Shown here: piece by piece, positions 3,532 to 41,483 of the stretch | How the letters are laid out: every line of letters begins with the position of its first letter | Numbering within the stretch: position 1 is the first letter of the stretch | Assembly (NCBI GenBank): GCA_024654625.1 | Contig: JANLHB010000016.1 | Coordinates: forward strand, 64,137-128,136 | DNA from: Patescibacteria group bacterium | GTDB lineage: Bacteria > Patescibacteriota > Minisyncoccia > GCA-002772825 | Length of the DNA: 64,000 nt | Direction of reading: 5' to 3' | The notes under the pieces: model-generated | What the model saw: only the letters and a program-made list of their open reading frames with translations | The model's database searches: none | What the model was told of the DNA's origin: nothing | Program-made: the position numbers and the translations under genes

Positions 3532-4607
3532 AAATAGGGATAATTTTACATCCGTATGGAGAAGGGAAGCCGGCCGGCTTAGGTCGTTATATCTTAGAAC
3601 TGACAAAATCTCTTATTGAAAATGATAAAGATAACGAGTATATAGTTTATCTTAAGGAGAAGCCTAAGATAATGCCGGAATTTATTACTTCAAATTGGAG
3701 GGTTGAAGTTTTAGGCTTGGGCAGATTTTGGAGAGAGATAGGGTTTTTCTTTGCGCCAAAGGCGGATATTTATATATTTAACACTCCGGTAATGCCGATC
3801 TTTTTTCGGTCTAAGAAATCTATTGTAATCGCTCTTGATTTTGCTTATCTTTATTTTAAGCCGGATGGAATCAAAGAAAGAATTAATAATTTCTTATTAT
3901 ATAAGATGAATAGTTTTGCTTTGAAGCGAGCGGATAAAATAGTTTCTATATCAGAAGCGACAAAAAAAGATATTATCAAATTGTTTAATATTCTTGATAA
4001 AAAAATAGAAGTGATATATCCCGGCTTTAGTAAAATATGCGCTTTTCCGTCAGAGGAGATTGCTGTTCCTTTAAATTTCTTTCTTTATGTTGGAGTGATC
4101 AAAGAAAGGAAAAATCTTCTAAATATCATAAAAGGTTTTTATGAATTTAAGAAAGAGAATAAGTCTGATATTAAGCTTGTTGTAGCCGGCAAAGGGAGTG
4201 GCGCTTATTATGAAGAAGCATTGTCTTTTGTTGAGGAGGATGATTTAAAAGAAGAAGTGGTCTTCTTGGGATTTGTTAATGACAATCAGTTGTCTTTCCT
4301 ATACAAGAACGCCAGAGCCTTTATCTTTCCTAGTTTGATTGAAGGTTTCGGTATGCCCGTACTTGAGGCGATGGACTGTGGCCTGCCGGTTGTCACTTCA
4401 AGGGAGAGCTCTCTTTCTGAAGTGGCTGGCGGCGCGGCGCTCTTAGTTGACCCGAAAGACCCAAAAGAGATATCAAGAGTTATGGAGAGGGTAGCTTTTG
4501 ATGATAAGCTAAGAGATGATTTGATAGAGATGGGAGATAGAAGGGTGATTGATTTCTCATGGAAGAAATGCGCTAGCCAGTTTATAGTATTACTTAATAA
4601 AATATGA
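3528..4607 (+). CDS. glycosyltransferase family 4
   Basis: Contains the motif EGFGMPVLEAMDCGLPVVTS, canonical for GT1/GT4 nucleotide-sugar binding domains. Confidence 0.8.
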   Translation: MKIGIILHPYGEGKPAGLGRYILELTKSLIENDKDNEYIVYLKEKPKIMPEFITSNWRVEVLGLGRFWREIGFFFAPKADIYIFNTPVMPIFFRSKKSIVIALDFAYLYFKPDGIKERINNFLLYKMNSFALKRADKIVSISEATKKDIIKLFNILDKKIEVIYPGFSKICAFPSEEIAVPLNFFLYVGVIKERKNLLNIIKGFYEFKKENKSDIKLVVAGKGSGAYYEEALSFVEEDDLKEEVVFLGFVNDNQLSFLYKNARAFIFPSLIEGFGMPVLEAMDCGLPVVTSRESSLSEVAGGAALLVDPKDPKEISRVMERVAFDDKLRDDLIEMGDRRVIDFSWKKCASQFIVLLNKI

Positions 4608-6316
4608 ATTCCATAATAAGAAAACATTTTTTGTTTATAATTCTTATTGCTGTTCTTGCTATCTATCTTGGATATATGGCGACTCTTGAGAATACTTGGG
4701 ACGGCTGGGCTTTTGGTTCGGCTCAAACGCTTTTAAGTTCAGAACATTGGTTAAAAGATGGATTTATTTTTAATAAATTCCTTTTTTTGCCTATGGGTTA
4801 TTCAAAAGTAGTTAAGTATCTTGACGAACCGGAATTGAGGCATCTTGCAAGAGGACTCCACGAGGGTCAGGCTATATTGATAGATCAAAGATCTCATTAT
4901 ACTCATTACCCGCCTGGTTATCTTTTGCCATATGCGACTTTGATGAAAATAGGATTTTCCGAGAGATATTGGTTTAGATTTTTGTCGTTATTTTTTTCAT
5001 TTACAGCGCTTGTTTTTATGTACTGGTTTTTTAATTTAATTTCAAATCGTATCGTGGCATTTTTTGCTGTTTCTTATTATGCGGTATCCACAATGTTTCT
5101 TGGATTTGCTGATTCTTTGGCTAATCAGCCGATTGATGATTTTCTGCGATTTAGCATTATGCTTTTGAGCCTTTTTGCCGTAAAGGCGCGTGATAATACT
5201 GAGAAATATAGATTGTATAACATTTTTATCTGGATAATTTATTTTATCTTGGCGATTTCTTCTTATGATTCCACTTTTTTTATTTTCATCTGGCTTGTGG
5301 GACTTGATCTCGTAATGACTAAGAAAATTTTATGGAAGAGATGGCTAATCTTTGTCTTAGCGCCTATTGCGGCATTTACTCTTCAGTTTTTGCAAAACTG
5401 GTGGTATCTTGGATATCCCGATGTCTGGCTTGATGCAAAAGGTATTTTTTTTAAAAGATCTTTAGTTGGTCCAGGAAATAATTTTTTTGAAAAGCATATA
5501 AGGTCCATGTTATCGCCTTTGGCTTATATTACGGGTCTTAGGGTAAGAGTGATTTTGCCAATTATAGCGATAGTGATAGTTATAATTTCAATCTTTATTA
5601 AGAAAATTGTTGATAATAGACAAAATCTATTTAATTTAAAGCTACTTGCAGTTTTGGCTTTAGCCGGCGCTTCTTATCCTTTTATTTTTACCACTCCGGG
5701 GTATTTCGATTACAGCGGCAGACAATTTGCGCCATTTATAGGATTGATGATTGGATTATCAATTTTTCTATTGATTAAAACATTATCTAAAGAAAATAGC
5801 GGAAAGTCCTTCAGTTTTAATAAGTGGAATATAAAATTTATAATCACATTTTTTCTTCTGTCTATATTTGTTGGATTTATATTTTTTATTCAATTACGCA
5901 GGACATACGGATATGTTTTTAATCGGAATATAGATTCCAGTTATAAGCAATTTATCTATAGGGTAGATTATGATATAATTGATTTTTATAGAATCCTAAG
6001 GTCTTTATCTTCGAATGACAGTATAATATTTTACATTACACATAAGGAGGGAGAATATTTTACAAGTAATCCTATTTCTATTAGAGAATATTATGCTGAA
6101 GGGCTTATTCTAGATTCTTTGAAGTATGAAGATGTAATTAATAATTATTTACTTTTGAAGCAATACTCAGAAGAGTTTTTTGATTCTATTATTGTATCGA
6201 CAGAAAGAGAGCCACTGGAAAAAATTTTAAAAGCCTTATCCATGGATGTGGATGGCATTTCTGAAATAAAATTGATTAAGAGCAGGTATGTTATGGTGAT
6301 TAAAGAAAAATTATGA
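4604..6316 (+). CDS. paralogue A of a four-member family of large polytopic membrane proteins (putative GT-C-like glycosyltransferase; variable C-terminal domain)
   Basis: A ~330-aa conserved N-terminal block is shared with 6313-7947, 8697-10352 and 11922-13595(-). Shared motifs are WDGW.FGSAQT..SS.HW..DGF, FLFLPMGYSK, YYTHYP.GYL.PYA.LMK.GF.ER.WFR, ADSLANQP.DD, SSYDSTFF.F.WLVGLDL and LQN.WYL. The protein has many TM segments. Confidence 0.6.
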   Translation: MNSIIRKHFLFIILIAVLAIYLGYMATLENTWDGWAFGSAQTLLSSEHWLKDGFIFNKFLFLPMGYSKVVKYLDEPELRHLARGLHEGQAILIDQRSHYTHYPPGYLLPYATLMKIGFSERYWFRFLSLFFSFTALVFMYWFFNLISNRIVAFFAVSYYAVSTMFLGFADSLANQPIDDFLRFSIMLLSLFAVKARDNTEKYRLYNIFIWIIYFILAISSYDSTFFIFIWLVGLDLVMTKKILWKRWLIFVLAPIAAFTLQFLQNWWYLGYPDVWLDAKGIFFKRSLVGPGNNFFEKHIRSMLSPLAYITGLRVRVILPIIAIVIVIISIFIKKIVDNRQNLFNLKLLAVLALAGASYPFIFTTPGYFDYSGRQFAPFIGLMIGLSIFLLIKTLSKENSGKSFSFNKWNIKFIITFFLLSIFVGFIFFIQLRRTYGYVFNRNIDSSYKQFIYRVDYDIIDFYRILRSLSSNDSIIFYITHKEGEYFTSNPISIREYYAEGLILDSLKYEDVINNYLLLKQYSEEFFDSIIVSTEREPLEKILKALSMDVDGISEIKLIKSRYVMVIKEKL

Positions 6317-7947
6317 AAAGACATTCATTTTTTGTTATATTATGTTTGATTTTAGTCATTTATCTTGGAATCAAGACATTGTCTGATGATGGTTGGGGCG
6401 GGTGGCTTGAGGGGATAGGTGACGCAGCAACTCTTCTTTCTTCCAAACATTGGTCGGAAGACGGTTTTATCTATAGTAAGTTTCTTTTTCTGCCGATGGG
6501 TTACTCAAAGACTGTGAAATATTTTGATGAGCCAGAAATGAGGCAGCATGCTCGCGGCACGGTGACTGGCGGAATGATAGGGAGGCGCCTTTATTATACT
6601 CATTATCCGAGTGGCTATCTTATTCCATATGCATTATTGATGAAAGCTGGATTTGTAGAACGGCATTGGTTTAGATTATTAGCTTTGTTTTTTTCTTTTG
6701 GCTCGCTAATTCTAATGTATTGGTTTTTTAATTTAATTGCCACAAGATCCGTCGCTTTTTTTGCCGCTTTTTATTATGGTATTTCAACTATGTTTCTGGA
6801 TTTTGCTGATTCTTTGGCTAATCAGCCTGTCGATGATTTATTTAGGTTTAGCATTTTAGTTTTAAGTGTTTTAGCTGTTAAATCGATTGATAATTTAAAA
6901 AAGTATGAGATATATAATGTATTTATATGGTTTTTATATTTTGCTCTTGCCAGCTCTTCGTATGATTCCACATTTTTTATTTTTGTCTGGCTGGTTGGGT
7001 TGGATCTTATAACTGTAAGAAAGTTTTTATGGAAAAAATGGCTTATCTTTACATTAGCACCGGTTGCCGCTTTTGGTTTGCAGATAATCCAGAATTGGTG
7101 GTATCTAAGGAGTTGGAAAGATGTTTTCCTTGACATATCTGGCACTTCGTCTGCAAGGGTGCAGACTAGTAATATTTTAAGCCATATAAAACAAGTTTTT
7201 TTTACTTTTAATTTGGCATCAGGCTTAAAAACAGTGACCATCACTTTAATGGTTATAATTCTTTTGACCCTTCTTTATATATTTAGAGGAAAAATTAGTC
7301 AGCTCTACAAAAATTATATCAATGATAGCTTTAAATTATCCCTATTCCAAATTATGATAATACTTTTTTTGGCTGGGGCTTTATATCCTTTTGTGCTAGC
7401 TGGAACGGGGGGTTTTTCTTATCAAGGTCGTCAAGTCATGCCTTTTCTGGCTTTATTGATAGGAGTTAGTACTGTTCTGGCTATTAGATTGTTTAAAATT
7501 AAGGAAAAAACAAGGATTTTTCCTCAAATTATTTTGATTTTTACTTTGATATTTCTATGGGGATGGCAGATATACAGAACAACTCAATATATATATGCCT
7601 GGCCTAATAATAAACCAGATGCTCGTATTATTGAAATTGGCGACTATTTAGAATCATCAAGAACAGGGGATTCGGTAGTTTTTTATTTAGGAGACAGATT
7701 GCCTTTGACTTTATTAACAGAATATTATTTAAATATGCCATTTTTGTTTTTTAAGGATGAATCTAGCTTGGTCAGGGATTTTCTTTGGCTTAAAGAGCAT
7801 TCTGAATATTCTTTTGACACATTTATTATTTCAGATAGAAAAGGAATCAGCGATAATCTGCATAAATTATTATTGAAAGAGAGCGTTAATGAGACAGTAA
7901 GGATAAAATTTATCGCAGGGGAATATCTTTTTAAATTATCATTTTAA
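6313..7947 (+). CDS. paralogue B of the same membrane-protein family
   Basis: Same conserved N-terminal motifs as 4604-6316. The C-terminal ~200 aa are divergent. Confidence 0.6.
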   Translation: MKRHSFFVILCLILVIYLGIKTLSDDGWGGWLEGIGDAATLLSSKHWSEDGFIYSKFLFLPMGYSKTVKYFDEPEMRQHARGTVTGGMIGRRLYYTHYPSGYLIPYALLMKAGFVERHWFRLLALFFSFGSLILMYWFFNLIATRSVAFFAAFYYGISTMFLDFADSLANQPVDDLFRFSILVLSVLAVKSIDNLKKYEIYNVFIWFLYFALASSSYDSTFFIFVWLVGLDLITVRKFLWKKWLIFTLAPVAAFGLQIIQNWWYLRSWKDVFLDISGTSSARVQTSNILSHIKQVFFTFNLASGLKTVTITLMVIILLTLLYIFRGKISQLYKNYINDSFKLSLFQIMIILFLAGALYPFVLAGTGGFSYQGRQVMPFLALLIGVSTVLAIRLFKIKEKTRIFPQIILIFTLIFLWGWQIYRTTQYIYAWPNNKPDARIIEIGDYLESSRTGDSVVFYLGDRLPLTLLTEYYLNMPFLFFKDESSLVRDFLWLKEHSEYSFDTFIISDRKGISDNLHKLLLKESVNETVRIKFIAGEYLFKLSF

Positions 7948-7963
7948 TGTTATTATATGATTT

Positions 7964-8716
7964 ATGTCTTACTATAAAAGCAACGACAGCCAGAAGGAAT
8001 TTTTTAATCAGATTATAGATACATACAGAATAGGAAATGAGGCAAACATAGACCTCTTGCTTAATTTAAGGAATGCAGTATCTGAGTTCATTGAGGGTGA
8101 TATTTTGGATATTGGTAATGGAGGATTAATAAATTTTGATATTGATAAAGCTAAATCAGTGATTTTAGCTGATATTGTTTTGGACCCAATAAAGAATCCA
8201 AAAATAATTAAAGGTAGATCCATTGTAGAGCTGGACGAAGACCATAAGAAACTTTTTAATTTCGTAGAAGCGGATGTTTTAAAAATGCCTTTTGCCGATA
8301 AAAGTTTTGATAGAGTTCTGATGTTTAATGTAGCTCATCATCTTTCGGTGGAATCTTCTAAGGATTCTGTTTTAAATATTAACTATGCCATAGATGGCAT
8401 TAAGAGGATTTTGCGCGATGATGGTATTTTTTTGATATGGGAGACTTGCCCATCTTTTCCGATTAAATTGGCTCAAGATGCGGGCTATAATTTATTATTT
8501 TGGATATTAAAAAAATTTAACAGGCCCTTGCCTTATTTTTTGGCCAGAAAAAATATAAAAAAATTACTGGAGAAAAAGGGATTTAATTTGATTTTAGTTA
8601 AAGAGATAGAATGGGGAGACAAAGTTTATTCACCTATATTTCCAAAGATCCTTGCTCCTAGATGGCTGTGGAATAAAATTTTGAGGACTTATTTATTTGT
8701 GGCTAAGAAAAATTAG
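7964..8716 (+). CDS. class I SAM-dependent methyltransferase
   Basis: Glycine-rich motif I (ILDIGNGGL), an acidic loop, and VLMFNVAHHL (post-II/III region), typical of Methyltransf_11/12. Confidence 0.6.
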   Translation: MSYYKSNDSQKEFFNQIIDTYRIGNEANIDLLLNLRNAVSEFIEGDILDIGNGGLINFDIDKAKSVILADIVLDPIKNPKIIKGRSIVELDEDHKKLFNFVEADVLKMPFADKSFDRVLMFNVAHHLSVESSKDSVLNINYAIDGIKRILRDDGIFLIWETCPSFPIKLAQDAGYNLLFWILKKFNRPLPYFLARKNIKKLLEKKGFNLILVKEIEWGDKVYSPIFPKILAPRWLWNKILRTYLFVAKKN

Positions 8717-10352
8717 ATTTTTCATGAAGTTTTTTTATTCTCATAAATGGTTTATTTTTTTATTCATATTTTTGGTAATATTTTTAAGTTTGAAAGCTAT
8801 ACCGAAAGATTCCTGGGACGATTGGGGTTTTGGTTCGGCGCAGACGATGATGAGTTCTCGTCACTGGGTTAAAGATGGTTTTATCCACAGTAAATTCCTT
8901 TTTTTGCCTATGGGTTATTCAAAGTCGGTGCGTTATTTAGATGGAACGGATATGAGGCATCTTACTCGCGGTACCATGACAGGCAAACTTATAGGCAGTA
9001 GACTTTATTATACTCATTATCCTGCCGGTTATCTTTTGCCATATGCGACTTTGATGAAGATTGGATTCTCTGAAAGGTTTTGGTTTAGATTTTTGGCAAT
9101 ACTCATTTCGCTTGCAGGGATTTCTTTAATGTATGCAGGTTTCTCTCTCATCTCCACGCGGATGATAGCCTTTCTGGCAACTCTGTATTATGCCGGCTCA
9201 ACGATGTTTCTAGGAATAGCGGATTCGCTGGCTAATCAGCCAATAGACGATTTATTTAGATTTTCAATCCTATTTTTAAGCGTGTGGATATATAAAATTT
9301 CTGACGACAAGAAGAAGAGACTTTATAATATATTCATCTGGTTTTTATATTTTGCTCTTGCCGGTTCATCTTACGATTCCACTTTTTTCGTGTTCGTTTG
9401 GCTTGTGGGGCTTGATCTCGTAATGACTAAGAAAATTTTGTGGAAGAAATGGCTTATTTTTGCCACAGCTCCGGTTATGGCATTTTTAGTTCAGCTTTTG
9501 CAAAATCTCTGGTATCTGGGTGTTCATGACGCTTTGCTTGATATCTATGGATCGTTTAGAGCTCGCGCGAATACCGGCCCAGGGACAAATGTATTTGAAA
9601 AACATATTCGCGCTATATTTTCACCTTGGGTTTATATGACTGACTTACGCGCGCGATTTATCATTCCGATTATTGTTGTTTTGTTTTCTATATTCGTGTT
9701 TCTCAAAAGACATGCCCTTAAAAATCTATATAATTTTCCAAAGAATGAAATTCTAGTTCTTTTGGCGATTTCCGGCTTCGCTTATCCTTTTATTCTTGTT
9801 TCTTCGGGTTATTTCCCGTATCAAGCAAGGCAGGCGGCGCTTTTTATATCATTACTACTTGCATCCGCAACAGTTCTTATCTTCCTCATAGCTAAAGATA
9901 TTAAAACTTTTCGCGCTTTTAAATCTGATTTTCAAATTAAAAGAGCCATGGCTCTTTTAATTTTAGTAATTTTAGTCAGTTTGTTATGGTTTAAGCAGGC
10001 AGACAGGACATACGCGTATATCAAACAATGGCCGAATAATGTTGTTGATGAGAAGATTATAAAATTCGGGCAAGATATGAGGGATGTGACTCACGGTCGT
10101 GATAGTGTGATTTTTAGAATGGAGAAGACGAGTTCATATCGTTATCCTCAAGCAGATCCGTTTTTGGAATATTATGCCGGCATGCCGATATTATCTTTTA
10201 AAGATACTAAAGATTTGGCGGATGATTTAATAAAATTAAAGAATCGTTCAGTTTATTCTTTTTTACCGATTATTATTGCTGATGATAAAGAAATAAGAAG
10301 TATAAAAGAATTTATATCCGGTAATAATTATGGCGAGGTTTATATTAAATAA
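8697..10352 (+). CDS. paralogue C of the membrane-protein family
   Basis: Conserved N-terminal block. Two ~60-nt stretches are nearly identical at the nucleotide level to 4604-6316 (compare ~4915-4985 with ~9025-9095, and ~5290-5350 with ~9400-9460). Confidence 0.6.
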   Translation: MWLRKIRFFMKFFYSHKWFIFLFIFLVIFLSLKAIPKDSWDDWGFGSAQTMMSSRHWVKDGFIHSKFLFLPMGYSKSVRYLDGTDMRHLTRGTMTGKLIGSRLYYTHYPAGYLLPYATLMKIGFSERFWFRFLAILISLAGISLMYAGFSLISTRMIAFLATLYYAGSTMFLGIADSLANQPIDDLFRFSILFLSVWIYKISDDKKKRLYNIFIWFLYFALAGSSYDSTFFVFVWLVGLDLVMTKKILWKKWLIFATAPVMAFLVQLLQNLWYLGVHDALLDIYGSFRARANTGPGTNVFEKHIRAIFSPWVYMTDLRARFIIPIIVVLFSIFVFLKRHALKNLYNFPKNEILVLLAISGFAYPFILVSSGYFPYQARQAALFISLLLASATVLIFLIAKDIKTFRAFKSDFQIKRAMALLILVILVSLLWFKQADRTYAYIKQWPNNVVDEKIIKFGQDMRDVTHGRDSVIFRMEKTSSYRYPQADPFLEYYAGMPILSFKDTKDLADDLIKLKNRSVYSFLPIIIADDKEIRSIKEFISGNNYGEVYIK

Positions 10353-11919
10353 GAGGTATTTATTTCTTATTATTGTTCTGCTTTTCGGAGCTTTTTATAT
10401 TTTTAATTTCGTATTTTCTTATAAAGATATTTCTTTTGCTTCAGGTGGCACTCAGGAAGATTTTATACTTGAATATAATGCGGGAAAGAATTTTTCAATA
10501 AAAGGTTTTGGAAAATTGTTTTTTCTTCCTGATTATTCTACTGATTTTAAAACGGACAGCCAACCTGTATTTTATACTCACAATCCGTCTTTACCGTCAG
10601 TTCTTCAGGGTTTTTTGATAGAATTAAGTTTTGATGTTTTTCAGTCAAGAGTATTCTACGCGATAATTTCCTTGGTCGGGATTGCTTTTTTATATCTGTT
10701 TATCAGCGCAATAGCATCAGTGCCTGCTGCTGTTTTTACTTCTTTGTTTTTGGTTCTAAATTTCAGCGGATTTTTAAGTTTAGCGGATCATAGTCAGTAC
10801 TCTTTAAGCTTTCCTATTTTGTTCGGCTATTTGTGGTTAAGATACACTGATATACCAAAAAAATATTTGATTATATCGTCTTTATTCTTTGTTGCTGTTT
10901 TTGCTAATTTTATGCTTGCGGCATTTATGCTTATTTTGGAAGTTTTGCTCGGAATTTTTGAGAAGAACATGAAGTTATCTTTTCTAGCTTTTTTGGCTGT
11001 TATTGGGGGAAGCGTTATTCATATTATTCAGAATATGATAGCCCTCACGCCTTTTGTAGCTTTTCAGGATATATGGCTTACTATACAAAATAGGTTTTTT
11101 AGCATTCCTTCCAGAATGGAGCTTCTGGGTTTTTATCAGGCTAATGACATTGTTCTTTGGGGGTCTAATGCATCTCCACCTTTGAGTAATTATTTATCTG
11201 GCACTATACCTTTTTATTTGTTCAAAATACCATTAACAATAGGAATAATTTTTACTTCTCTTTTTTATATTTTTAGACAAGGTATTATCTATAAAAATAT
11301 AAAATTTATAACCCCTTTATTTTTTTCTGTTTTTATATGGCAGACTATATTTCTTCCAACAATAGGAAATCATCCCTTGTTTTTTCACGCCTTTATGGTT
11401 ATTTTTCTAGGTTTGGTTCTTGGTGATTTGTTTCGCGTCCTTATTGAAAATATAGACACTAATAATGATTTTATAATATTGATTAAGGAAATCTTATTTA
11501 AAATTATAATTTTTGTCGCTATGATTCTTATTGTTTTGGAATACTTTACATGGGCAGCCGGCATAAGCCAAGATGAAAGGCTTCCTGTCATATTGGCGAC
11601 TCTGGAGAATTATCAAGATAAGACTTTTTTTACTAATATTACGCCAAATACCGTATCATTTAAAACAGGCGCTTGGTCCGTGGGTTTTTGTCTTCCAGAT
11701 GGTCTTATAGATATAGATGCTTCAAATTGTTATTCTAAGTTTTCAGGACTTAGTAATGAAAAATTGATACCGGATTATATACTTTTATCATCTTATGCTT
11801 ATGCTTTTGAATGTTCGCGCGAATGTTTCTTTAGCTTGAAGAATAAGCTGATTGCTAAATATGAATTAGTTGAAGAAATAAATAATGGGGAAGATGTAAT
11901 ATATAAAGTTAAAAAATAA
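10330..11919 (+). CDS. polytopic membrane protein, distant member of the same GT-C-like family
   Basis: Many TM helices. It retains an FYTHNPSLPS..GFL loop motif reminiscent of the YYTHYP.GYL motif of the four paralogues. Confidence 0.5.
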   Translation: MARFILNKRYLFLIIVLLFGAFYIFNFVFSYKDISFASGGTQEDFILEYNAGKNFSIKGFGKLFFLPDYSTDFKTDSQPVFYTHNPSLPSVLQGFLIELSFDVFQSRVFYAIISLVGIAFLYLFISAIASVPAAVFTSLFLVLNFSGFLSLADHSQYSLSFPILFGYLWLRYTDIPKKYLIISSLFFVAVFANFMLAAFMLILEVLLGIFEKNMKLSFLAFLAVIGGSVIHIIQNMIALTPFVAFQDIWLTIQNRFFSIPSRMELLGFYQANDIVLWGSNASPPLSNYLSGTIPFYLFKIPLTIGIIFTSLFYIFRQGIIYKNIKFITPLFFSVFIWQTIFLPTIGNHPLFFHAFMVIFLGLVLGDLFRVLIENIDTNNDFIILIKEILFKIIIFVAMILIVLEYFTWAAGISQDERLPVILATLENYQDKTFFTNITPNTVSFKTGAWSVGFCLPDGLIDIDASNCYSKFSGLSNEKLIPDYILLSSYAYAFECSRECFFSLKNKLIAKYELVEEINNGEDVIYKVKK

Positions 11920-11921
11920 TT

Positions 11922-13595
11922 TTAAGGAACAATCAATATCTTTTTATCTTTAATAATTATGGACTGGACCCGGCCATTATCATCTTTTGGAGATTTTGTA
12001 TATATTAGGTCAATTAAGGTTTTTGTTTTTGCTTCAGTCGGCAATATTATTAGAGCTGAAAAAGGATATTCAGATATTTGTTTCAGGTAAGTGAAGTCGC
12101 GAACCAAATCCTCTTTGTCATCAAAGTATAAAATAGGCATATCGTGGTAATACATATCATAATAACGCGTCATTGTCGGTGTGATTGAGTCGCCGTAATA
12201 CTCCGGAGGAAACATGGTGAATATTACAGTATCTTCTAAAGCAAACGGCTTAAGAGAATTTTTTAGTTCATACGCAAAATCTATCTTCTCTTGTTCGTAT
12301 GTGTTATTAGGCCACTGTTTTATATAAGCGAACGTCCTGCTCGTCTGCAGTGACCACATAAAAATACTTAAAGAAATTAAAACAAGAACAAAGATTTTTT
12401 GCGAGAGTTGTTTTTTTATAATCCAATAAATCATAAATATAAATATACCTGCTATAAAAGCCGCAAATACTCCCAATATCCGTCCTTTATAAGGATGATT
12501 ATCTGTCAGTATAAGAGATTGGAAAAAAGCACTTCCTCCTAAGAGTATCGCATACTTGTATATATCGGGTATTGTGCTATTTATATATTTTATTTTTCTT
12601 AACTTGAAAAATGCGACTACAATGGTGGCGATAAAGATCAAAGCATAACGCAATCGGAAAGAGAAAGCAAAAGCCTCAGTTATGGGAAATAGTATTCCTT
12701 GCAGAAAACGCTGTTTTATAAAATTTTGCCCTGAATTTGAAGCAAGTGGAATAGCATTGAAAGCGCCAAAAAAGTCTGAAAGCATATTGTAGAAGCCTAA
12801 ATACCATGAGTTTTGGATTACCTGGACACCAAATGCTAAAACAGGCGCGCAGGAGAAGAGAAGCCATTTTTTCCATGGAAAATTCTTGACGATCAGGATA
12901 TCAAGACCTATGAGCCAGAAAAAGACAAAAAAAGTTGAATCGTAAGAAGATACGGAGAGGACGAAATAAGAGAGCCATGCCCACATGCTATAAGTAAAAT
13001 ATTTTTTGCTATTACTTATGTTTTTGATGGCCAGCACACTAAGAAATAGGATAATAAAACGAAAAAAGTCGTCTATCGGCATATTGGCCAGCGAATCGGC
13101 AAAGTCTAAAAAGGGAACGGATATCATGTAAAACAACACAGCGAAAAACGCGATTGCTTTATTGCTGATCAAAATAAAAAATTTATACAGCAAAAACAAG
13201 CTTCCCATGGAAATGAGTATCTGAAATAACCTAAACCAAAATCGGTTTTCAAAACCAAGCTCCATTAAAAAGGCGAGAGGAAATAAATAACCTGACGGAT
13301 AATGCGTATAATATGTTTGTTTTGTGCCTTTGCCCCCGGTAACATCAACCCAGGCATGTTGTTTTAAATTTGGATCATCAAAATAATGCGTTGTTTTTGA
13401 ATATCCTGCAGGAATAAACAAGAAATAATGATTTGTCCATCCATCATTTACCCAATGTTTGATGCTCATCATCGTCTGGGCTGAGCCAAAACCCCAACCG
13501 TCCCAACTATTTTCATGAGTAGCTTTTACGGTTAGGTATATACCAATAATACTGATAAATGTTATTAATAGGTATGTTAAGAAATGTTTTTTCAT
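11922..13595 (-). CDS. paralogue D of the membrane-protein family (minus strand)
   Basis: Carries WDGWGFGSAQTMMS..HW..DGW, YYTHYPSGYLFPLAFLMELGFENRFWFR, ADSLANMPIDD and SSYDSTFFVFFWLIGLDI. The C-terminus is divergent. Confidence 0.6.
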   Translation of the reverse strand: MKKHFLTYLLITFISIIGIYLTVKATHENSWDGWGFGSAQTMMSIKHWVNDGWTNHYFLFIPAGYSKTTHYFDDPNLKQHAWVDVTGGKGTKQTYYTHYPSGYLFPLAFLMELGFENRFWFRLFQILISMGSLFLLYKFFILISNKAIAFFAVLFYMISVPFLDFADSLANMPIDDFFRFIILFLSVLAIKNISNSKKYFTYSMWAWLSYFVLSVSSYDSTFFVFFWLIGLDILIVKNFPWKKWLLFSCAPVLAFGVQVIQNSWYLGFYNMLSDFFGAFNAIPLASNSGQNFIKQRFLQGILFPITEAFAFSFRLRYALIFIATIVVAFFKLRKIKYINSTIPDIYKYAILLGGSAFFQSLILTDNHPYKGRILGVFAAFIAGIFIFMIYWIIKKQLSQKIFVLVLISLSIFMWSLQTSRTFAYIKQWPNNTYEQEKIDFAYELKNSLKPFALEDTVIFTMFPPEYYGDSITPTMTRYYDMYYHDMPILYFDDKEDLVRDFTYLKQISEYPFSALIILPTEAKTKTLIDLIYTKSPKDDNGRVQSIIIKDKKILIVP

Positions 13596-14965
13596 ATTTT
13601 GGTTTTTTTTGTTAAGTCGAGCAGGCCTGATATTGCAAACATAATAATAAATGGCGAAGCGGAAAAGCGATAGCGTATCATATCTCCTGCCGCCATATTC
13701 CCTATGAGAAGCAGATAAAGTATTATAGACGCAATTAGTATTATATAGGATCTGGTGTTTGTATCTGATTTTTTAAATAAAATAATAGCGCCTAAAACGG
13801 ACAATAATAAAGTTACTATCCAAAAAATTGTTCCAAATATCATTATTAATGCAGCGATTATTTCTTTTGAATGGAAGTTTGAAATCTTTTTTATATTGAG
13901 TTCTAAAATGGCATTTTTTACTTCTTTATGGTAATTGACTTGTCCGCTTGTCCCTTTGATTAGATTTCTTATGGATCCCCACCATGATGAACCAACAGTA
14001 TCTGTCAGAAGATGCTTGAAGTAAAAAGCGGTGAAGCCTAATGGTTTTGATAAAATTATTTTTGTTGATTTTTTTATGGCCGCGGAGGTCTTGTCTAAGT
14101 GGCCTGATTCTTTAAATTTTGGCAAGCCGCTTTCTTTCGGTATTTCTGTCGGTGTATTTTTGAATCCTTTTTGTTCTGCTTTAAATTGCGAGGCGGTTAT
14201 ATAGATACTTGAAGCGTTATCTGAAGAGATTTGCCAAGAATTGAAAGTAATATAATTTCTAAAGGACCACGGTAATAAAAGAATAACATATATAGAGAAT
14301 ATCATACTGAGTTGAATTAATGTTTTCTTTGAAAACATACTGTTTAAGAAATTTAAATTTTCTGTCTTACTGTTAGCGTATATTATAGTGGGCGCAAATA
14401 TCATCGGCAGTAATAAAGAGGTTGGTCTTATGTATGTTAAAGTTGCAAGTAATAATGCGGCGATAAGTATAAAATATTTTGTATTTTTTATTTCACCTGT
14501 GTATTTTATAAAAATACAAACGATTATAAGGAGGAAAAGAATATAAATAGGCTCTGTAAAAAATTGAGATGATATGTCTATAGCGTATAATTCAAAAGCC
14601 CATATTAATGATACGGCTATTGACCAAGATTGATTTAGCCATTTTCTTGAAATTAAATACAAAAGAACAGCGCTTATGCCGGCTATAGCGTGCTGGATAA
14701 ATAAAACGGCCCACCAGTTTTTGAATATACTAAAAATTACAGCTAGAAAAAGAGGATACCCGGGCATTCTTAGGGCCGTAGGGTTAATGCCGTCAAGTGA
14801 GAAGGAGAATGATTTGGATAAATTTTCGGCTATCTGAAAGTAATAATCAGTAGTTAATCCTTCGAGCGGAAGATTGTTGGCTATTTTTAAAAGTGTGAAA
14901 AAGCTATATACTATAAATACTGAGAGAAATATCAAAAGTTCAGTCTTTCTTGTTTTAAGCGTCAT
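13592..14965 (-). CDS. GT-C fold membrane glycosyltransferase, PMT_2/ArnT-like
   Basis: Has the LRMPGYPLFLAVIF loop motif and many TM helices. Its start overlaps the upstream gene. Confidence 0.6.
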   Translation of the reverse strand: MTLKTRKTELLIFLSVFIVYSFFTLLKIANNLPLEGLTTDYYFQIAENLSKSFSFSLDGINPTALRMPGYPLFLAVIFSIFKNWWAVLFIQHAIAGISAVLLYLISRKWLNQSWSIAVSLIWAFELYAIDISSQFFTEPIYILFLLIIVCIFIKYTGEIKNTKYFILIAALLLATLTYIRPTSLLLPMIFAPTIIYANSKTENLNFLNSMFSKKTLIQLSMIFSIYVILLLPWSFRNYITFNSWQISSDNASSIYITASQFKAEQKGFKNTPTEIPKESGLPKFKESGHLDKTSAAIKKSTKIILSKPLGFTAFYFKHLLTDTVGSSWWGSIRNLIKGTSGQVNYHKEVKNAILELNIKKISNFHSKEIIAALIMIFGTIFWIVTLLLSVLGAIILFKKSDTNTRSYIILIASIILYLLLIGNMAAGDMIRYRFSASPFIIMFAISGLLDLTKKTKI

Positions 14966-14988: not shown

Positions 14989-16356
14989 ATGAATTATCTA
15001 TATTTTACAAAGAAATATTGGTTTCCGATTCTAGTGCTTCTCATTATCATCGTCAATGCTTTAATCTTCCTGCCCAAGTATGGCGCGTGGGGTGGACCCA
15101 CTGATGTGGAATATAACGAGACTGCTATTAACATGGCAAATGGCGACGGCTTTTCTTTGGGTGGAGAGAGAACGATGTTTCGTGAGCCGGCTTATCCTTT
15201 CTTTTTGGCTTTGAACTATAGGTTATTTGGGGTTAATTGGACAATAATTAGGATAGAGCAATTTTTATTGCTGTTTCTAATAATTTATCTTACCTATATA
15301 ATTTCTTATGAGATTTTTGGTGTTTTAACGGCGAGAATCGCCTCCTTGGCAATAGTTGTGTTGCCGATATTTCCTATATATGCCACAGATATTATTTCCG
15401 AAATTTTTGCCGCTTTTTTGGTAGTTTTATTTATTTATTTATTTTTAAAAAGTCTAAGCTTCAAAAAGGTGAGACCTTTTTATGTGGAAAAAGGTCTCAC
15501 CTTTTTGTTATTAAGCGGGTTGGTCTTTGGAATACTGGCTCTTACAAAAAGTATTTTTATTTTTTTACCTGTTTTGATTTTGCCGATCTATTTATTAAAG
15601 GACAGAAAATATGGTTTAAAAAATATAGTATTATTCTTTTTTGCTTTTTTAGTTATTGTATCCCCATGGGTTTATAGAAATTATATAAATTTTGGAAATA
15701 TGGCTATTGCCGATAGAGGGGGGATGCTTATGTATCTTCACTCTATAAAAAGCGAATTTAGCGTCAATAAATTGAAAGATTATGCTGTCGCCTCTTTAAC
15801 CGGAGAATATATCGTCCGTCTTTATAATCCGGATTTTAATATTGTTGAGGGAGAGGGGATATACCTGATGAATCAGCATAGGGCAGAACTTTTAAATAAT
15901 GGATTGAATTTCTCCCAAGCTGATGAAGTGATGTCAAAAGAGGCTGAAGTATTATATCTGAAGCATCCTGTTAAAAATTTGTTAATAGGCTTCTTGGAGG
16001 TAGCGAAAGTTAATGCGCCTATGGCGCCAAAGTACTCTATAATGTTCGCTTTCCCTGAAGATATCGGCAGTTCACTTTTTGAAAAGGTTATGAAAACGGG
16101 AATTGTCTTAATTATAAGGCTATTATGGGCTATTATCTTGCTTATGGCTTTTTGGGGCGCTTATAAGGCTTTAAGAGAAAAAAATATAAAAGCTATAGTG
16201 ATGTTATTTTTTATAATTTATCTAAATGGTGTAATTTTTTTTCTGCAAGGCGTGCCAAGATTTATTTTTGTAATTTATCCTTTTTATTTTATTTTTTTTG
16301 CTTTCAGTATTTCTATTATTTTAAATAAATTTTTTTATGGAAATAAAGAATTATAA
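14989..16356 (+). CDS. GT-C fold membrane glycosyltransferase, PMT_2/ArnT-like
   Basis: Has the FREPAYPFFLALNYRLFG motif. It is transcribed divergently from 13592-14965 with only 23 bp between the two start codons. Confidence 0.6.
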   Translation: MNYLYFTKKYWFPILVLLIIIVNALIFLPKYGAWGGPTDVEYNETAINMANGDGFSLGGERTMFREPAYPFFLALNYRLFGVNWTIIRIEQFLLLFLIIYLTYIISYEIFGVLTARIASLAIVVLPIFPIYATDIISEIFAAFLVVLFIYLFLKSLSFKKVRPFYVEKGLTFLLLSGLVFGILALTKSIFIFLPVLILPIYLLKDRKYGLKNIVLFFFAFLVIVSPWVYRNYINFGNMAIADRGGMLMYLHSIKSEFSVNKLKDYAVASLTGEYIVRLYNPDFNIVEGEGIYLMNQHRAELLNNGLNFSQADEVMSKEAEVLYLKHPVKNLLIGFLEVAKVNAPMAPKYSIMFAFPEDIGSSLFEKVMKTGIVLIIRLLWAIILLMAFWGAYKALREKNIKAIVMLFFIIYLNGVIFFLQGVPRFIFVIYPFYFIFFAFSISIILNKFFYGNKEL

Positions 16357-17062
16357 ATTAAAACTTACAATAGTAGTACCGGCTTTTAACGAAGAAAAGA
16401 ATCTTGAGTTTACCATAAGAGGACTCATGTACGTTCTAAATGAAAAACGCTTAGAAAATTATGAAATCATTATTTTTGATGACTCTTCATCTGATAGAAC
16501 AGGAATTATTGCTGATCGGCTTGCCTTAGAAAATAAGGGAATAAAGGTGATTCATAATAAGATAAATATGGGCTTTGGCTACAATTATAAGAAGGGTGTA
16601 GAAATGTCAGCCGGAGAGTATGTGATGATTATCCCAGGGGATAATGAAGTAATATCTTCTTCTTTTGGATACTTGATTGATTCAATAGGCAAGGCAGATA
16701 TAGTCTTAAGCTATATTGATAACGTAAAAGAACGATCTTGGATTCGCAGGATAATTTCATTTTTTTATGTTAAGTTTTTGAATTTTCTTTTTAGTTTGAA
16801 TATGAAATATTATAACGGGATAAGCATATATCCTGTTTCATTGGTTAAAAAAACTATGCCGACAACTTTTGGTTTTGCCTTTGCGGCGGAGATTGCAATA
16901 AGACTTTTAAAGTCAGGGGCGACTTATATTGAGGTTCCAATGTTTATAAGGCCAACTAATAAGACTTCGGCTTTTAGATTGAAAAATATTATAAGTGTTA
17001 TGAAAACTATAATTATTCTTTTCTGGAGTATTAATATAAAAAAAGAGAGAGCGGAAATTTGA
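16337..17062 (+). CDS. GT2 glycosyltransferase, DPM1/GtrB-like polyprenyl-phosphate glycosyltransferase
   Basis: IVVPAFNEEKNL, an IIFDDSSSD DxD-type motif, and a C-terminal membrane anchor. It is a paralogue of 21897-22619. Confidence 0.75.
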   Translation: MEIKNYKLKLTIVVPAFNEEKNLEFTIRGLMYVLNEKRLENYEIIIFDDSSSDRTGIIADRLALENKGIKVIHNKINMGFGYNYKKGVEMSAGEYVMIIPGDNEVISSSFGYLIDSIGKADIVLSYIDNVKERSWIRRIISFFYVKFLNFLFSLNMKYYNGISIYPVSLVKKTMPTTFGFAFAAEIAIRLLKSGATYIEVPMFIRPTNKTSAFRLKNIISVMKTIIILFWSINIKKERAEI

Positions 17063-17086
17063 CACCCTTTACTTTTCTCATATAAA
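17059..17086 (+). promoter_or_regulatory. sigma70-like promoter TTGACA-N16-TATAAA upstream of the GT9 gene
   Basis: TTGACA at 17059-17064 and TATAAA at 17081-17086. The downstream leader is shared with the three radical-SAM leaders. Confidence 0.5.
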
Positions 17087-17158
17087 AGTTAGTATATTTT
17101 TGGAAGATAAAATAAAATATTCGGTTCTTTAATTTAAACATAAATAAGGGGGTGTAAA

Positions 17159-18172
17159 GTGAAGAAAGAAAAAGTCCTTATAATAAAGCCCGGGTATTCC
17201 GAGACGCTTGTAAATGACATCGGAACAAAAACAAGCCTTGGTGATGTGCTAAGAAGCACTGTCATATTGCCTTTGTATAAAGATGCTCATGTCACATGGC
17301 TAGTAGATGAGAAGGCAGTATCTTTGCTCAAGGGGAATATCTACATCGACAGGATAATGACTTACGATCTCACGAGTATCTTACAGCTTCAGAAGGAGAG
17401 GTTTGATACTGTCATAAACCTTGAGAAGGTTGGCGGACTTTGCGCCCTCGCCGATAGTATAAATGGCTGGAGGCGATACGGTTTCAGGTTTGACCCTGAG
17501 ATCGGAGAAATCAAGGCTTATGACGGTTCTCAGCATGTCGTGGAGCTGTGTTCAAATCTTGACGGGAAACGCTCTAACCAGAAGCTATGGGAAGAGTTTC
17601 TCTTTGAGATGGTGGGCGCCAAGTGGGATGGCGAGATGCCTATTCTTGGTTACAAACCGAAATCAAAAGAGATTTTTGACATCGGCTTTAACCACAATGT
17701 CGGCGATAAATGGCCAATAAAGGCGTGGCCTAAAGATTACTGGGAAAAATTACAGCAATTTATCGGCGGAAGATTTTCTGTTTCATGGCAACAGGGACTC
17801 GGCTCTATAGAAGAGTATATAGAGTGGATAAGTTCTTGCCGTTTTATTATCACTAACGACAGTCTTGGTCTGCACATCGCTCACGCCCTTGATAAAAAGA
17901 TCATCGCCCTTTTTGGCCCAACTGTTTCAGGTGAAGTGTATGTTAGGAAAGGGATAAAGCTTTTACCTGATCCTAGGCCGGATTGCCTCCCGTGTATGAG
18001 CAATATATGCAAGCAAGGAGTGTCTTGCATGTATGACATAAGACCGGAGAGGGTGCTCGCTGAAGTCAACAATCTAATGTCGGGTGGCGAGACTTCTTCG
18101 GGCGAAAGTGATATTCAAGAGAAGCGCGGTCTTATCCCTTCTAAGCCGGATTTCAAAGGTATCGGCTATTGA
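17159..18172 (+). CDS. GT9 family glycosyltransferase (ADP-heptose:LPS heptosyltransferase-like)
   Basis: GTG start. An N-terminal KVLIIKPGYS..GD block and a C-terminal FIITNDSLGLHIAHALDKKIIALFGPT block match the GT9 signature. GC is higher than the surrounding genes. Confidence 0.6.
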   Translation: MKKEKVLIIKPGYSETLVNDIGTKTSLGDVLRSTVILPLYKDAHVTWLVDEKAVSLLKGNIYIDRIMTYDLTSILQLQKERFDTVINLEKVGGLCALADSINGWRRYGFRFDPEIGEIKAYDGSQHVVELCSNLDGKRSNQKLWEEFLFEMVGAKWDGEMPILGYKPKSKEIFDIGFNHNVGDKWPIKAWPKDYWEKLQQFIGGRFSVSWQQGLGSIEEYIEWISSCRFIITNDSLGLHIAHALDKKIIALFGPTVSGEVYVRKGIKLLPDPRPDCLPCMSNICKQGVSCMYDIRPERVLAEVNNLMSGGETSSGESDIQEKRGLIPSKPDFKGIGY

Positions 18173-18200
18173 TTTATGTCCGATCTTGATGTTCTATCGC

Positions 18201-18243
18201 CCCTCATCTTTTCTTATAAAAGAAAAGATGAGGGGTTTTTTTC
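18201..18243 (+). terminator. rho-independent terminator
   Basis: Stem CCCCTCATCTTTTC / GAAAAGATGAGGGG followed by T7. Confidence 0.75.
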
Positions 18244-18327
18244 TTGCAAAAATGCGAAATAATGATATCGTTTAAGTGGAAAAAAGAAGGTCTTTAACTT
18301 TTAAATATAAATAACAGGAGGGTTAAA
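18244..18327 (+). promoter_or_regulatory. promoter TTGCAA-N16-TATCGT plus conserved 5' leader (copy 1 of 3 near-identical units)
   Basis: TTGCAA at 18244-18249 and TATCGT at 18266-18271. The leader ...GTTTAAGTGGAAAA...GGTCTTTAACTTTTAAATATAAATAACAGGAGG precedes the ATG at 18328. Confidence 0.6.
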
Positions 18328-19203
18328 ATGGAGAAGAAAGTTATGTTGCCGTCAGTAAAGATTCCCGAGCCTTATAATTACATAGCGGTGTTTTTAACAC
18401 TTGCTTGTAACTTAAAGTGCAGTTACTGCATCAATGACTTTGAGTCAGGATCCAAAAAGAAAGGCGGGGAGCTTTTATCCGGAGATGAGTGGATAACCGG
18501 TCTAAAGAGGATTATCTCAAGATCAGACCTGCCTGTAACTCTTCAAGGCGGAGAGCCAAGCTTGCATAAGGATTTTATATACATACTTAATAATATAAAA
18601 TCCGAATTGCATGTAGATGTTCTTACGAATCTTCAGTTTAACGTTGATGAGTTTATCAAGAAGGTTGACCCGAATCGCGTGAAGAGAGAATCACCTTACG
18701 CATCTATACGAGTGAGTTATCACCCTGAGCAGGTGAACCTCGGCTCCTTGGTAAATAAAGTTTTGAAGATGCAGTATGTAGGGTTTCATATAGGTATCTG
18801 GGGCGTGATGCATCCTGCTCAGAAGGGGTATATCCTTGACGCCCAGAGACATTGCCTTTATCAGGGAATAGATTTTCGCCTTAAAGAATTTCTCGGTGAG
18901 CATAAAGGAAAGATGTACGGGGAATATAAGTATCCTGAAGCTTGCAATAGAGAATCAAAAAAAACGGTTCTTTGTAAGACGACTGAGCTTATCATCGGTC
19001 CTGACGGATCGGTATACCGCTGTACAGCTGACCTCTATGAAGGCAGAGAACCGGTAGGGCATATCCTTGATCCGGATTTCAGGATAGAGGATAAATACAG
19101 GCCATGTAACTGGTATGGCCATTGCAACCCGTGTGACATAAAAGTGAAGACCAATCGTCATCAAAAGTTTGGTCACACTTCTGTTGATATAATCGGAGCT
19201 TAG
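18328..19203 (+). CDS. radical SAM protein with C-terminal Cys-rich (SPASM/twitch-like) domain
   Basis: CNLKCSYC (CxxxCxxC) near the N-terminus and a TLQGGEP SAM motif. C-terminal cysteine clusters are CKTTELIIGPDGSVYRC and CNWYGHCNPC. It resembles BtrN/anSME-type dehydrogenases in size and layout. Confidence 0.7.
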   Translation: MEKKVMLPSVKIPEPYNYIAVFLTLACNLKCSYCINDFESGSKKKGGELLSGDEWITGLKRIISRSDLPVTLQGGEPSLHKDFIYILNNIKSELHVDVLTNLQFNVDEFIKKVDPNRVKRESPYASIRVSYHPEQVNLGSLVNKVLKMQYVGFHIGIWGVMHPAQKGYILDAQRHCLYQGIDFRLKEFLGEHKGKMYGEYKYPEACNRESKKTVLCKTTELIIGPDGSVYRCTADLYEGREPVGHILDPDFRIEDKYRPCNWYGHCNPCDIKVKTNRHQKFGHTSVDIIGA

Positions 19204-19220
19204 AGTAACTATTTAACACC

Positions 19221-19254
19221 AACCCCGCCAGTTTTAAATGGCGGGGTTTTTTTA
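19221..19254 (+). terminator. rho-independent terminator
   Basis: Stem AACCCCGCC / GGCGGGGTT followed by a T-run. Confidence 0.75.
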
Positions 19255-19334
19255 TTGCAAAAACATAGAATAATGGTATGGTTTAAATGGAAAAGGATAT
19301 ATAAACTTGAACTTTAAAATAAAAGGAGGCGTTA
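19255..19334 (+). promoter_or_regulatory. promoter TTGCAA-N16-TATGGT plus conserved leader (copy 2)
   Basis: Near-identical to 18244-18327 and 20541-20632. Confidence 0.6.
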
Positions 19335-20486: not shown

Positions 20487-20501
20487 TTCTTTCGGGTTTA
20501 T

Positions 20502-20540
20502 GACCCACGTTTCGCGTTAAGCGGAGCGTGGGTCTTTTTA
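20502..20540 (+). terminator. rho-independent terminator
   Basis: Stem GACCCACG / CGTGGGTC followed by T5. Confidence 0.7.
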
Positions 20541-20632
20541 TTGCAAAAATGTGAAATAATGATATGGTTTAAATGGAAAATATAAGATCTTTAACTTTAA
20601 ACTTTCTAAAATATAAGGGGGTTGCGATGAGT
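20541..20632 (+). promoter_or_regulatory. promoter TTGCAA-N16-TATGGT plus conserved leader (copy 3)
   Basis: TTGCAA at 20541-20546 and TATGGT at 20563-20568. It contains the same GTTTAAATGGAAAA and TCTTTAACTTTAAAC blocks as the other two copies. Confidence 0.6.
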
Positions 20633-36582: not shown

Positions 36583-36819
36583 ATGTCTAAAAAAAAGACA
36601 AAAATATATCAGGACCATGAGGGGTGCATAGGCTGTGGGAGCTGTGTGGCTGTTTGCCCTAAATTCTGGAAGATGGGCGATGACGATAAGGCGGAGATAA
36701 TAGGCGGAAAGAAGAATGAGAAAGGGGATTATGAGCTTGATATTGACGAAGTCGGTTGCAATAAAGACGCTGAAGAAGCTTGTCCGGTGCAAGTTATTAA
36801 AGTTATGGAAAATAAATGA
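36583..36819 (+). CDS. small [4Fe-4S]/[3Fe-4S] ferredoxin
   Basis: CIGCGSCVAVCP cluster motif plus a distal C...CP. Confidence 0.6.
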   Translation: MSKKKTKIYQDHEGCIGCGSCVAVCPKFWKMGDDDKAEIIGGKKNEKGDYELDIDEVGCNKDAEEACPVQVIKVMENK

Positions 36820-41455: not shown

Positions 41456-41483
41456 CCCCCGCCAAGGCGGGGGTTTTAGTTTG
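41456..41483 (+). terminator. rho-independent terminator
   Basis: CCCCCGCC aag GGCGGGGG followed by TTTTAGTTT. Confidence 0.7.

Follow-up and report, generated by a model that had tools for sequence, protein, structure and literature searches.

Four paralogous membrane proteins in a Patescibacteria surface-glycan locus: probable GT-C_A-fold glycosyltransferases of a new, unnamed family

The early part of a 64,000-nucleotide (nt) stretch of the genome of an uncultivated Patescibacteria group bacterium, one of the Parcubacteria (contig JANLHB010000016.1 of assembly GCA_024654625.1, forward-strand positions 64,137 to 128,136; hereafter the window) encodes four paralogous integral-membrane proteins, A to D, which are probably glycosyltransferases (GTs) of the GT-C_A fold class. 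Together with two further genes they fill positions 4604-13595 with six tightly packed open reading frames (ORFs). Paralogue A, a putative GT-C_A family member (4604-6316, + strand, 570 amino acids (aa), NUV64_00435), is followed by paralogue B (6313-7947, + strand, 544 aa, NUV64_00440), the protein chosen for structure modelling. An S-adenosylmethionine (SAM)-dependent methyltransferase matching Methyltransf_11 (7964-8716, + strand, 250 aa) separates B from paralogue C (8697-10352, + strand), which is 551 aa long when counted from the TTG at 8697 and 542 aa in the public annotation, where NUV64_00450 starts at the ATG at 8724. The cluster is completed by E (10330-11919, + strand, 529 aa), a sister-subfamily member bearing YTHNP, ADH, and QN motifs, and by paralogue D on the opposite strand (11922-13595, − strand, 557 aa, NUV64_00460). 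The four paralogous ORFs had been delineated in an original prediction made from the letters of the sequence alone, and both their coordinates and the motifs quoted for them, WDGW.FGSAQT, FLFLPMGYSK, YYTHYP.GYL, ADSLANQP.DD, SSYDSTFF, and LQN.WYL, are found in the sequence.

Pairwise BLASTP shows A, B, C, and D to be full-length paralogues, with 37-49% identity over 518-573 aligned residues and E-values of 1e-105 to 1e-158. The similarity is unevenly distributed: identity is 51-65% over the first ~280 aa and 22-35% beyond them, the drop (~0.65 to ~0.26) taking place within alignment columns 270-330. A conserved N-terminal core, as originally proposed, is thus real, although it spans about 280 rather than ~330 aa. 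The accompanying claim that the last ~200 aa are essentially unrelated does not hold, as the C-terminal halves align collinearly and share the motifs Y.K.WPNN, DSVIF, and EYY..MPIL.F.D..DL..D...LK..SE.PF..II across 55 family members. Nor are they hypervariable. Paralogue C is 70-77% identical overall, and 60-75% in the C-terminal half, to its orthologues from other Patescibacteria (P0014, P0017, P0026, P0020, P0021); the corresponding values for D are 70-84% and 63-78% (P0078, P0073, P0087, P0068). The C-terminal halves of C and D are therefore 60-78% identical within their orthologue groups, which speaks against hypervariability. B has orthologues at 93% and 64% identity, while A has none closer than ~49%, its nearest relatives being C-type proteins. 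C and D represent old, separately conserved orthologue groups that occur together in several genomes, and equal-sized contigs in four further cases likewise suggest that C-type and D-type orthologues form a conserved pair. Because their C-termini are collinear and conserved within orthologue groups, A-D appear, on sequence comparison, to be old, functionally fixed paralogues and not the hypervariable, cassette-like family first envisaged.

The near-identical nucleotide stretches that had been noted between A and C do exist: 62 of 71 nt are identical between 4915-4985 and 9026-9096, and 55 of 61 nt between 5290-5350 and 9398-9458; a third tract consists of an exact 33-nt run at 4774/8891. Recent gene conversion between the two paralogues, the explanation given for these stretches, could draw on the exact A/C runs of 33, 32, and 29 nt against a background identity of ~67%, and on the position of the C-type group as the closest relatives of A. 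However, a permutation test of synonymous-codon identity, restricted to codons with identical amino acids, detected no clustering between A and C (longest run 9, p=0.32; best 15-codon window 13, p=0.38), and clustering was likewise nonsignificant in the other five pairs. Third-position identity of A and C, at 51%, is no higher than that of A and B (51%), and, the genome being 33% GC, roughly one in two identical amino acids shares a codon anyway. Since the tracts fall on invariant peptide motifs and identical codons are unclustered, conversion is unneeded to account for them, and we regard it as decidedly improbable.

No Pfam family was returned for any of A-E, and no PMT_2 match appeared even at E≤1; Pfam and NCBIfam scans together yielded nothing usable beyond one chance match to Flp1_like (E 0.039). 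The fold assignment comes instead from structure prediction. An AlphaFold2 (AF2) model of B, built from a 55-sequence alignment, reached a mean predicted local confidence (pLDDT) of 93.1 and a predicted TM-score (pTM) of 0.92. Foldseek placed STT3/AglB on top when its matches were ranked by E-value, while the lipid A-modifying enzyme ArnT (PDB 5f15) was the best reciprocal match, with TM-scores of 0.58/0.58 and full-length coverage; overall, the best structural matches were ALG12 and ArnT. No transporter was among the significant fold matches. The GT-C identity first proposed for these proteins is thereby borne out, as the predicted structure contains a GT-C fold and the conserved core matched no transporter. 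In the models of both B and E, a multi-pass protein opens with a conserved module of seven transmembrane (TM) helices that is followed by a variable module, the arrangement that defines GT-C_A.

The relationship of these proteins to named families is correspondingly distant. Subthreshold matches to PMT_2 (PF13231) were found for 6 of the 55 family members (best E 3.7e-6) and for 14 of 28 members of the sister subfamily (best E 2.6e-7); the individual matches listed score 19-25 bits against a gathering threshold of 26.1 bits, such that neither the A-D family nor the sister subfamily attains PMT_2 membership by that measure. The YTHYP loop aligns to the start of the Pfam PMT_2 model. Against an alignment of the neighbouring PMT_2-like genes, however, the family gave an hhalign E of 0.0019 and a probability of 14%, with the loop weakly aligned to R.PGYPLF, and no relationship was detected with F, I, and J individually. 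The proposed resemblance of this loop to the ArnT/PMT motif therefore stands with respect to the PMT_2 model and only faintly with respect to the neighbours. No oligosaccharyltransferase (OST)/STT3 (GT66) family was returned by the Pfam, NCBIfam, or PDB-sequence searches, in which the WWDYG signature was not directly searched, and the large C-terminal domain of OSTs is absent from the model of B, whose own C-terminal domain is ~115 aa. A-D had not been recognized as any named family at the outset, and none was matched in Pfam, NCBIfam, or PDB sequences; a literature search combining GT-C with Patescibacteria returned no papers, and no paper describing the family was found. A-D thus form a new, unnamed family within a well-known enzyme class.

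Model helices combined with the positive-inside rule predict 11 TM helices for B, with an N-in/C-out topology; lysines and arginines near short loops number 17 inside versus 5 outside. The first external loop (EL1, residues 22-116) comprises ~95 residues and includes helices at 31-50, 66-72, and 101-111. Two short outer loops carry ADSLAN (165-170) and SYDS (216-219). TM7 ends in QxxQNxxY, after which come a 41-residue outer loop, four more helices, and an alpha/beta domain (437-544) predicted to be external. The conserved ~280 aa correspond to TM1-TM7, and EL1 carries most of the invariant residues. In described GT-C_A enzymes, a conserved seven-helix module bears the catalytic base in its first luminal loop, and the variable module that follows makes most acceptor contacts (PMC13503287). 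The conserved N-terminal and divergent C-terminal halves of A-D match this architecture, which makes the idea of a shared donor-binding and catalytic core reasonable. The original division into a shared membrane core and divergent acceptor-recognizing parts accordingly fits GT-C_A anatomy, except that the divergent part comprises four TM helices as well as the soluble domain. External placement of the C-terminus is supported because some relatives carry C-terminal fusions to NPCBM, Laminin_G_3, or F5/8-type-C carbohydrate-binding modules, or to long TPR arrays; the carriers (P0153, P0159, P0160, P0213, P0226, P0249) come from other metagenomes and belong to both the family and its sister subfamily. 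Such fusions are also consistent with glycan, or protein, acceptors.

Across the 55 sequences, W28, W47, Y95, T96, H97, P99, G113, S128, S158, L212, D218, P250, Q257, Q260, N261, Y264, D274, and Y472 are invariant, and the near-invariant positions include D72, R117, R121, D166, and D174. Most active-site candidates among them fall on predicted outer-face segments. Judged from conservation and predicted topology, the candidate catalytic residues are E/D25, D29 or D37, D72, H97, R117, R121, and D166, together with D218, Q257, Q260, N261, and D274. The acidic candidates of EL1 vary in an informative manner. Position 25 is Glu or Asp in 48 of the 55 family members, and position 29 is acidic in 38 of 55. 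The first EL1 helix includes position 37, an Asp in B, in four other family members, and in the sister subfamily, E included, where the surrounding motif reads WSAWAxGDAQ. In B (residues 25-40, window 6385-6435) the segment reads WGGW-LE-GIGDAAT, compared to WDGW--GFGSAQT in A, C, and D. B thus combines G29, D37, and a two-residue LE insertion, and the other three show the reverse, with D29 and no D37. Conceivably, the catalytic acid has been relocated, or the donor specificity may differ between B and the others.

E had been put forward as a more distant fifth member, and this affiliation is real. Its alignment with the A-D family profile is weak (hhalign E 4.3e-5 over 243 columns), but against a hidden Markov model of 27 sister-subfamily proteins built without E, residues 7-403 scored 77.5 bits (E 5e-26). 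The sister subfamily, recovered by exhaustive profile search, has 28 members and a consensus motif of YYTHYPPL, and it aligns along its entire length with the A-D family at an hhalign probability of 100% (E 2.4e-62, 490 columns). The AF2 model of E has a pLDDT of 72.9 overall and about 90 over the N-terminal module; Foldseek returned the same fold list as for B, with AglB (18.9), ALG12 (17.7), and ArnT (16.9). On this model, E is a protein of GT-C_A fold that belongs to the sister subfamily of A-D.

The family is rare and widely scattered. Its representatives number 480 at E≤1e-3 among 1.84 billion proteins. Its 48 loci, found among 185,579 species genomes and each from a metagenome-assembled genome (MAG) or a single-amplified genome, span Patescibacteria, Nitrospirota, Deltaproteobacteria/Thermodesulfobacteriota, Geobacteraceae, Planctomycetia, Omnitrophota, Elusimicrobia, and others. 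Nearly every locus holds one copy; five hold two, and at least four of these are labelled Patescibacteria. The window, with four copies plus E, has the highest copy number among the loci surveyed.

Three further genes raise the number of GT-C-fold genes within 16 kb to eight, all three belonging to a separate, PMT_2-like family: H (999-2387), F (13592-14965, − strand), and G (14989-16356, + strand). They are followed by a short GT2 (16337-17062, + strand, 241 aa), a candidate polyprenyl-phosphate sugar synthase. Downstream lie three radical SAM genes (18328-21754), among them two radical SAM/SPASM genes on the + strand (19335-20486 and 20573-21754), and the window holds a B12-radical-SAM gene as well. 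A Wzx-like flippase, a MOP protein, is encoded at 23674-24981; at 36816-39014 follows a protein that joins Wzy_C (O-antigen ligase/polymerase-like) to TPR repeats. Together with GT4, GT2, and GT9-like genes, polysaccharide deacetylases, and several methyltransferases, these genes make up a glycan-biosynthesis region that occupies approximately the first 40 kb of the window.

Several other ORFs of this region deserve mention. One of 517 aa (26517-28070) has no Pfam or NCBIfam match and combines a single N-terminal TM helix with a soluble region rich in Ser, Thr, and Asp; its product could be a surface protein or a glycosylation substrate. Another, also of 517 aa and without Pfam or NCBIfam match (30025-31578), is multi-pass and ends in a soluble domain that loosely recalls that of A-D; it could be another divergent GT-C, although its hhalign match to the family is not significant. 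Envelope genes further on encode a B12-binding, HpnJ-like radical SAM protein (33085-34548), an LPG_synthase_TM-family protein (34477-35457, − strand), and a GT2 (35457-36320, − strand). Directly after secA (41481-44018) the character of the DNA changes: between 44000 and 64000 the GC content is 45-52%, up from 33-37%, the A>T skew is strong, and the ORFs include a PD-(D/E)XK nuclease (46803-47711), an IstB/DnaC-like ATPase (49063-49848), a Dam-type D12 methyltransferase (54765-55793), an SU10/P22-like portal protein (56029-57981), and an SU10 major capsid protein (59850-61070). With a composition so unlike that of the host, this stretch has the look of a prophage or else of some phage-derived or chimeric DNA. 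It has no tRNA or rRNA genes, and neither the Rfam nor the tRNA scan yielded anything anywhere in the window.

Elements of this gene neighbourhood recur around family members elsewhere. Homologues of the GT2 at 16337-17062 (E≤1e-26) lie within 7 kb of a family gene in 15 of 49 loci, the window counted, and at that same distance in 12 of the 23 loci, the window again counted, whose flanks extend for 5 kb or more to either side; in 14 other loci a full-length homologue is located 1-4 kb from the family member. In its sequence, this GT2 matches the structures of GtrB (E 9e-9), DPMS (6e-7), and ArnC (5e-5), with generic GT2s scoring about as well. Homologues of the radical SAM/SPASM genes (19335-21754) accompany family members at distances of up to 7 kb in 17 other loci, or 18 with the window, and both kinds of gene are near in 12 loci. 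In the Nitrospirota- and Geobacter-type loci displayed, the order is GT2, radical SAM/SPASM immediately upstream, then the family gene. This GT2-radical SAM/SPASM-GT-C arrangement, to which 16337-21754 corresponds in the window, is conserved in Nitrospirota, Geobacteraceae, and further phyla; it is present, at about 4-12 kb in each, in L016, L017, L022, L025, L026, L028, L035, L037, L038, L039, and L047. In Nitrospirota it is often preceded by genes for an HldE-like kinase, an SIS (GmhA-like) isomerase, and thiamine diphosphate (TPP)-dependent E1 alpha/beta-like proteins, a context that suggests an unusual sugar donor, possibly heptose-derived or branched. Judging by their gene context, the radical SAM/SPASM enzymes may modify the sugar. 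The PMT_2-like family of F, G, and H co-occurs with the A-D family in 12 loci, mostly in Patescibacteria; in one locus (L001) a gene matching Methyltransf_23/_11 adjoins the family member, as the methyltransferase at 7964-8716 does here. In a Deltaproteobacteria MAG, a family gene sits inside a Wza/Wzc/Bac_transf exopolysaccharide (EPS) locus.

These observations are best accommodated, with a probability of roughly 0.7 for the explanation as a whole, if A-D are GT-C_A-fold integral-membrane glycosyltransferases that, together with E, work outside the cell and furnish a cell-surface glycan with sugars delivered on lipid carriers. The cytoplasmic GT2 (16337-17062) would load a sugar onto polyprenyl phosphate, the linked radical SAM or methyltransferase enzymes may tailor it, and the lipid-linked sugar would then be flipped across the membrane. 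Each GT-C paralogue would subsequently act as an inverting transferase that attaches the sugar to its own position or acceptor on a surface glycan or glycoconjugate; the surrounding GT4/GT2/Wzx/Wzy_C cluster would build that glycan. Donor binding and the catalytic residues would reside in the conserved N-terminal module, and the acceptor would be selected by the divergent variable module together with the C-terminal domain. The donor type, the sugar, the flippase, and the acceptor in this scheme are suggested by fold class and gene context; indirect support for a polyprenyl-phosphate donor comes from the linked GT2, with its similarity to GtrB, DPMS, and ArnC, and from the conserved outer-face Arg117 and Arg121.

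A number of findings weigh against this explanation. Position 37, the canonical base site, is Ser in A, C, D, and 47 of the 55 family members overall; most members with Ser37 carry Asp29 instead, within WDGW. About half of the loci with complete flanks have no nearby GT2. The assignment of the window's GT2 as a polyprenyl-phosphate sugar synthase draws on generic GT2 similarity; two uncharacterized GT2s outscore GtrB, DPMS, and ArnC. No GtrA-like small flippase was found, nor any unassigned small ORF in the packed 13.5-26.5 kb interval. A dedicated small flippase of the GtrA/GtcA or MATE kind is likewise missing, and only the Wzx-like MOP protein is present. Profile searches of PDB sequences with the family, sister-subfamily, and neighbouring PMT_2-like alignments returned no GT-C match, which makes residue mapping onto ArnT or ALG12 impossible. 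Finally, all 137 family matches among 5.8 billion clustered proteins are named "hypothetical protein".

The main alternative, albeit an unlikely one, is that A-D are PMT/TMTC-type protein O-glycosyltransferases that transfer sugar from a polyprenyl-phosphate donor to Ser/Thr-rich surface proteins, such as S-layer proteins, pilins, or the anchored product of 26517-28070. PMT_2 is the sole named family with a sequence link to A-D, yet it also covers ArnT-like lipid and glycan transferases. The TPR arrays at the C-termini of some relatives recall TMTC enzymes, TPR-membrane proteins neighbour the family in 14 loci, and a Ser/Thr-rich exported protein is encoded in the window's own cluster; however, the MIR domain is absent, other relatives bear NPCBM, F5/8-C, or Laminin_G_3 carbohydrate-binding modules, and diderm homologues are found in Wza/Wzc EPS loci. 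A different donor, a polyprenyl-diphosphate-linked oligosaccharide used in an OST-like or glycan polymerase/ligase-like reaction, would agree with the STT3/AglB matches that head the Foldseek list by E-value and with the Wzx-type flippase of the cluster. Such a role is improbable because the C-terminal domain is small (~115 aa), no OST/STT3 family was matched in Pfam, NCBIfam, or PDB sequences, a separate Wzy_C protein is already encoded at 36816-39014, and a small GT2, expected with monophosphate-sugar donors, recurs nearby; moreover, ALG12 and ArnT, the best overall structural matches, use monophosphate donors. A Wzy-like polymerase, considered in view of the EPS context of one locus (L002), was rejected, because the fold matches point to GT-C_A and not to GT-C_B/Wzy and because a Wzy_C is already encoded in the window. 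The want of a family-level sequence match leaves room for transporters or noncatalytic membrane scaffolds that resemble GT-C, but the significant fold matches include no transporter, and the invariance or near-invariance of the polar outer-face residues D218, D274, H97, D72, D166, R117, R121, Q257, Q260, and N261 renders a noncatalytic role highly unlikely.

A more elaborate proposal extends the surface-glycan explanation and, taken jointly in all its parts, is rather doubtful. GT2, radical SAM/SPASM, and GT-C would constitute a new extracytoplasmic glycosylation module conserved across Patescibacteria, Nitrospirota, Desulfobacterota, and Planctomycetota, in which the sugar, either already on its lipid or about to be loaded, would be remodelled by the radical SAM enzyme; the heptose and TPP-dependent branching genes may be the source of that sugar in Nitrospirota. 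Placing the unusual sugar on the surface would be the task of the GT-C family. In Parcubacteria, the family would have expanded into four specialized paralogues, and the catalytic acid would have shifted from Asp37 (B, E) to Asp29 or Glu25 (A, C, D).

For a tiny-genome bacterium of the candidate phyla radiation (CPR), some 40 kb devoted to surface-glycan synthesis is a considerable outlay. The A-D family has neither a Pfam or NCBIfam model nor a characterized member and is confined to uncultivated lineages; characterization of a single member would probably lead to a new CAZy family, on the recent precedent of GT136, and would offer a handle on CPR surface chemistry, which mediates attachment to hosts. 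As the enzyme class and its general logic are well known, the finding is incremental rather than conceptual. Its best leads are the recurring GT2-radical SAM-GT-C linkage, which is suggestive of an unusual sugar, and the acidic residue of EL1, which appears to have shifted.

Among known proteins, those of Pfam PMT_2 (PF13231), F, G, and H included, share with A-D a clan-level fold, and the YTHYP(P/S)(L/G) motif aligns to the start of the PMT_2 model; A-E lie below any reportable PMT_2 threshold, and the 14% hhalign probability to the neighbours sets them apart. ArnT (GT83; undecaprenyl-phosphate-L-Ara4N:lipid A transferase; PDB 5f15/5ezm) is, at 541 aa, close in size to B (544 aa) and has the features predicted for it: an N-terminus on the inside, a first periplasmic loop that is long, and at the C-terminal end a small alpha/beta domain in the periplasm. 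Both ArnT and the family belong to the remote PMT_2 sequence neighbourhood. ArnT differs in sequence (~10% identity, no match at the profile level), in the 11 TM helices predicted for B, and in the family motifs YYTHYPxGY, ADSLANQP, SSYDS, and QxxQN. Lipid A synthesis is not known from Parcubacteria, and no lipid A gene was seen in the window. Three-component periplasmic glycosylation systems, with several GT-C enzymes per locus, are documented (PMC11127046); the scheme proposed for A-D follows their established lipid-linked logic, to which ArnC/ArnT also conforms. Their examples, GtrB/GtrA/Gtr*, CsbB/GtcA/YfhO, and GT136 of Citrobacter, differ from the window in having a dedicated GtrA/MATE-type flippase, none of which stands beside the A-D genes, and a GT-C of another family; none of the systems described so far includes linked radical SAM/SPASM genes. 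They resemble the scheme proposed for the window in pairing a GT2-type polyprenyl-phosphate sugar synthase, here a candidate, with one or more GT-C enzymes in a polysaccharide locus, and some of these enzymes, like relatives of A-D, carry a carbohydrate-binding module (PMC11127046). ALG12, ALG9, and ALG3 (GT22/GT58) are eukaryotic endoplasmic reticulum enzymes, dolichyl-phosphate-mannose-dependent luminal mannosyltransferases that are 8-11% identical to A-D and carry their catalytic base on the first helix of luminal loop 1, where most members of the A-D family have Ser. In mycobacteria, the Emb/Aft enzymes add a lipid-linked sugar to distinct glycan sites. Like A-D, the ALG enzymes form a paralogous set in which a conserved seven-helix module is joined to a divergent variable module and a C-terminal luminal domain; the ALG set attaches one kind of donor sugar to several positions of a single glycan (PMC13503287).

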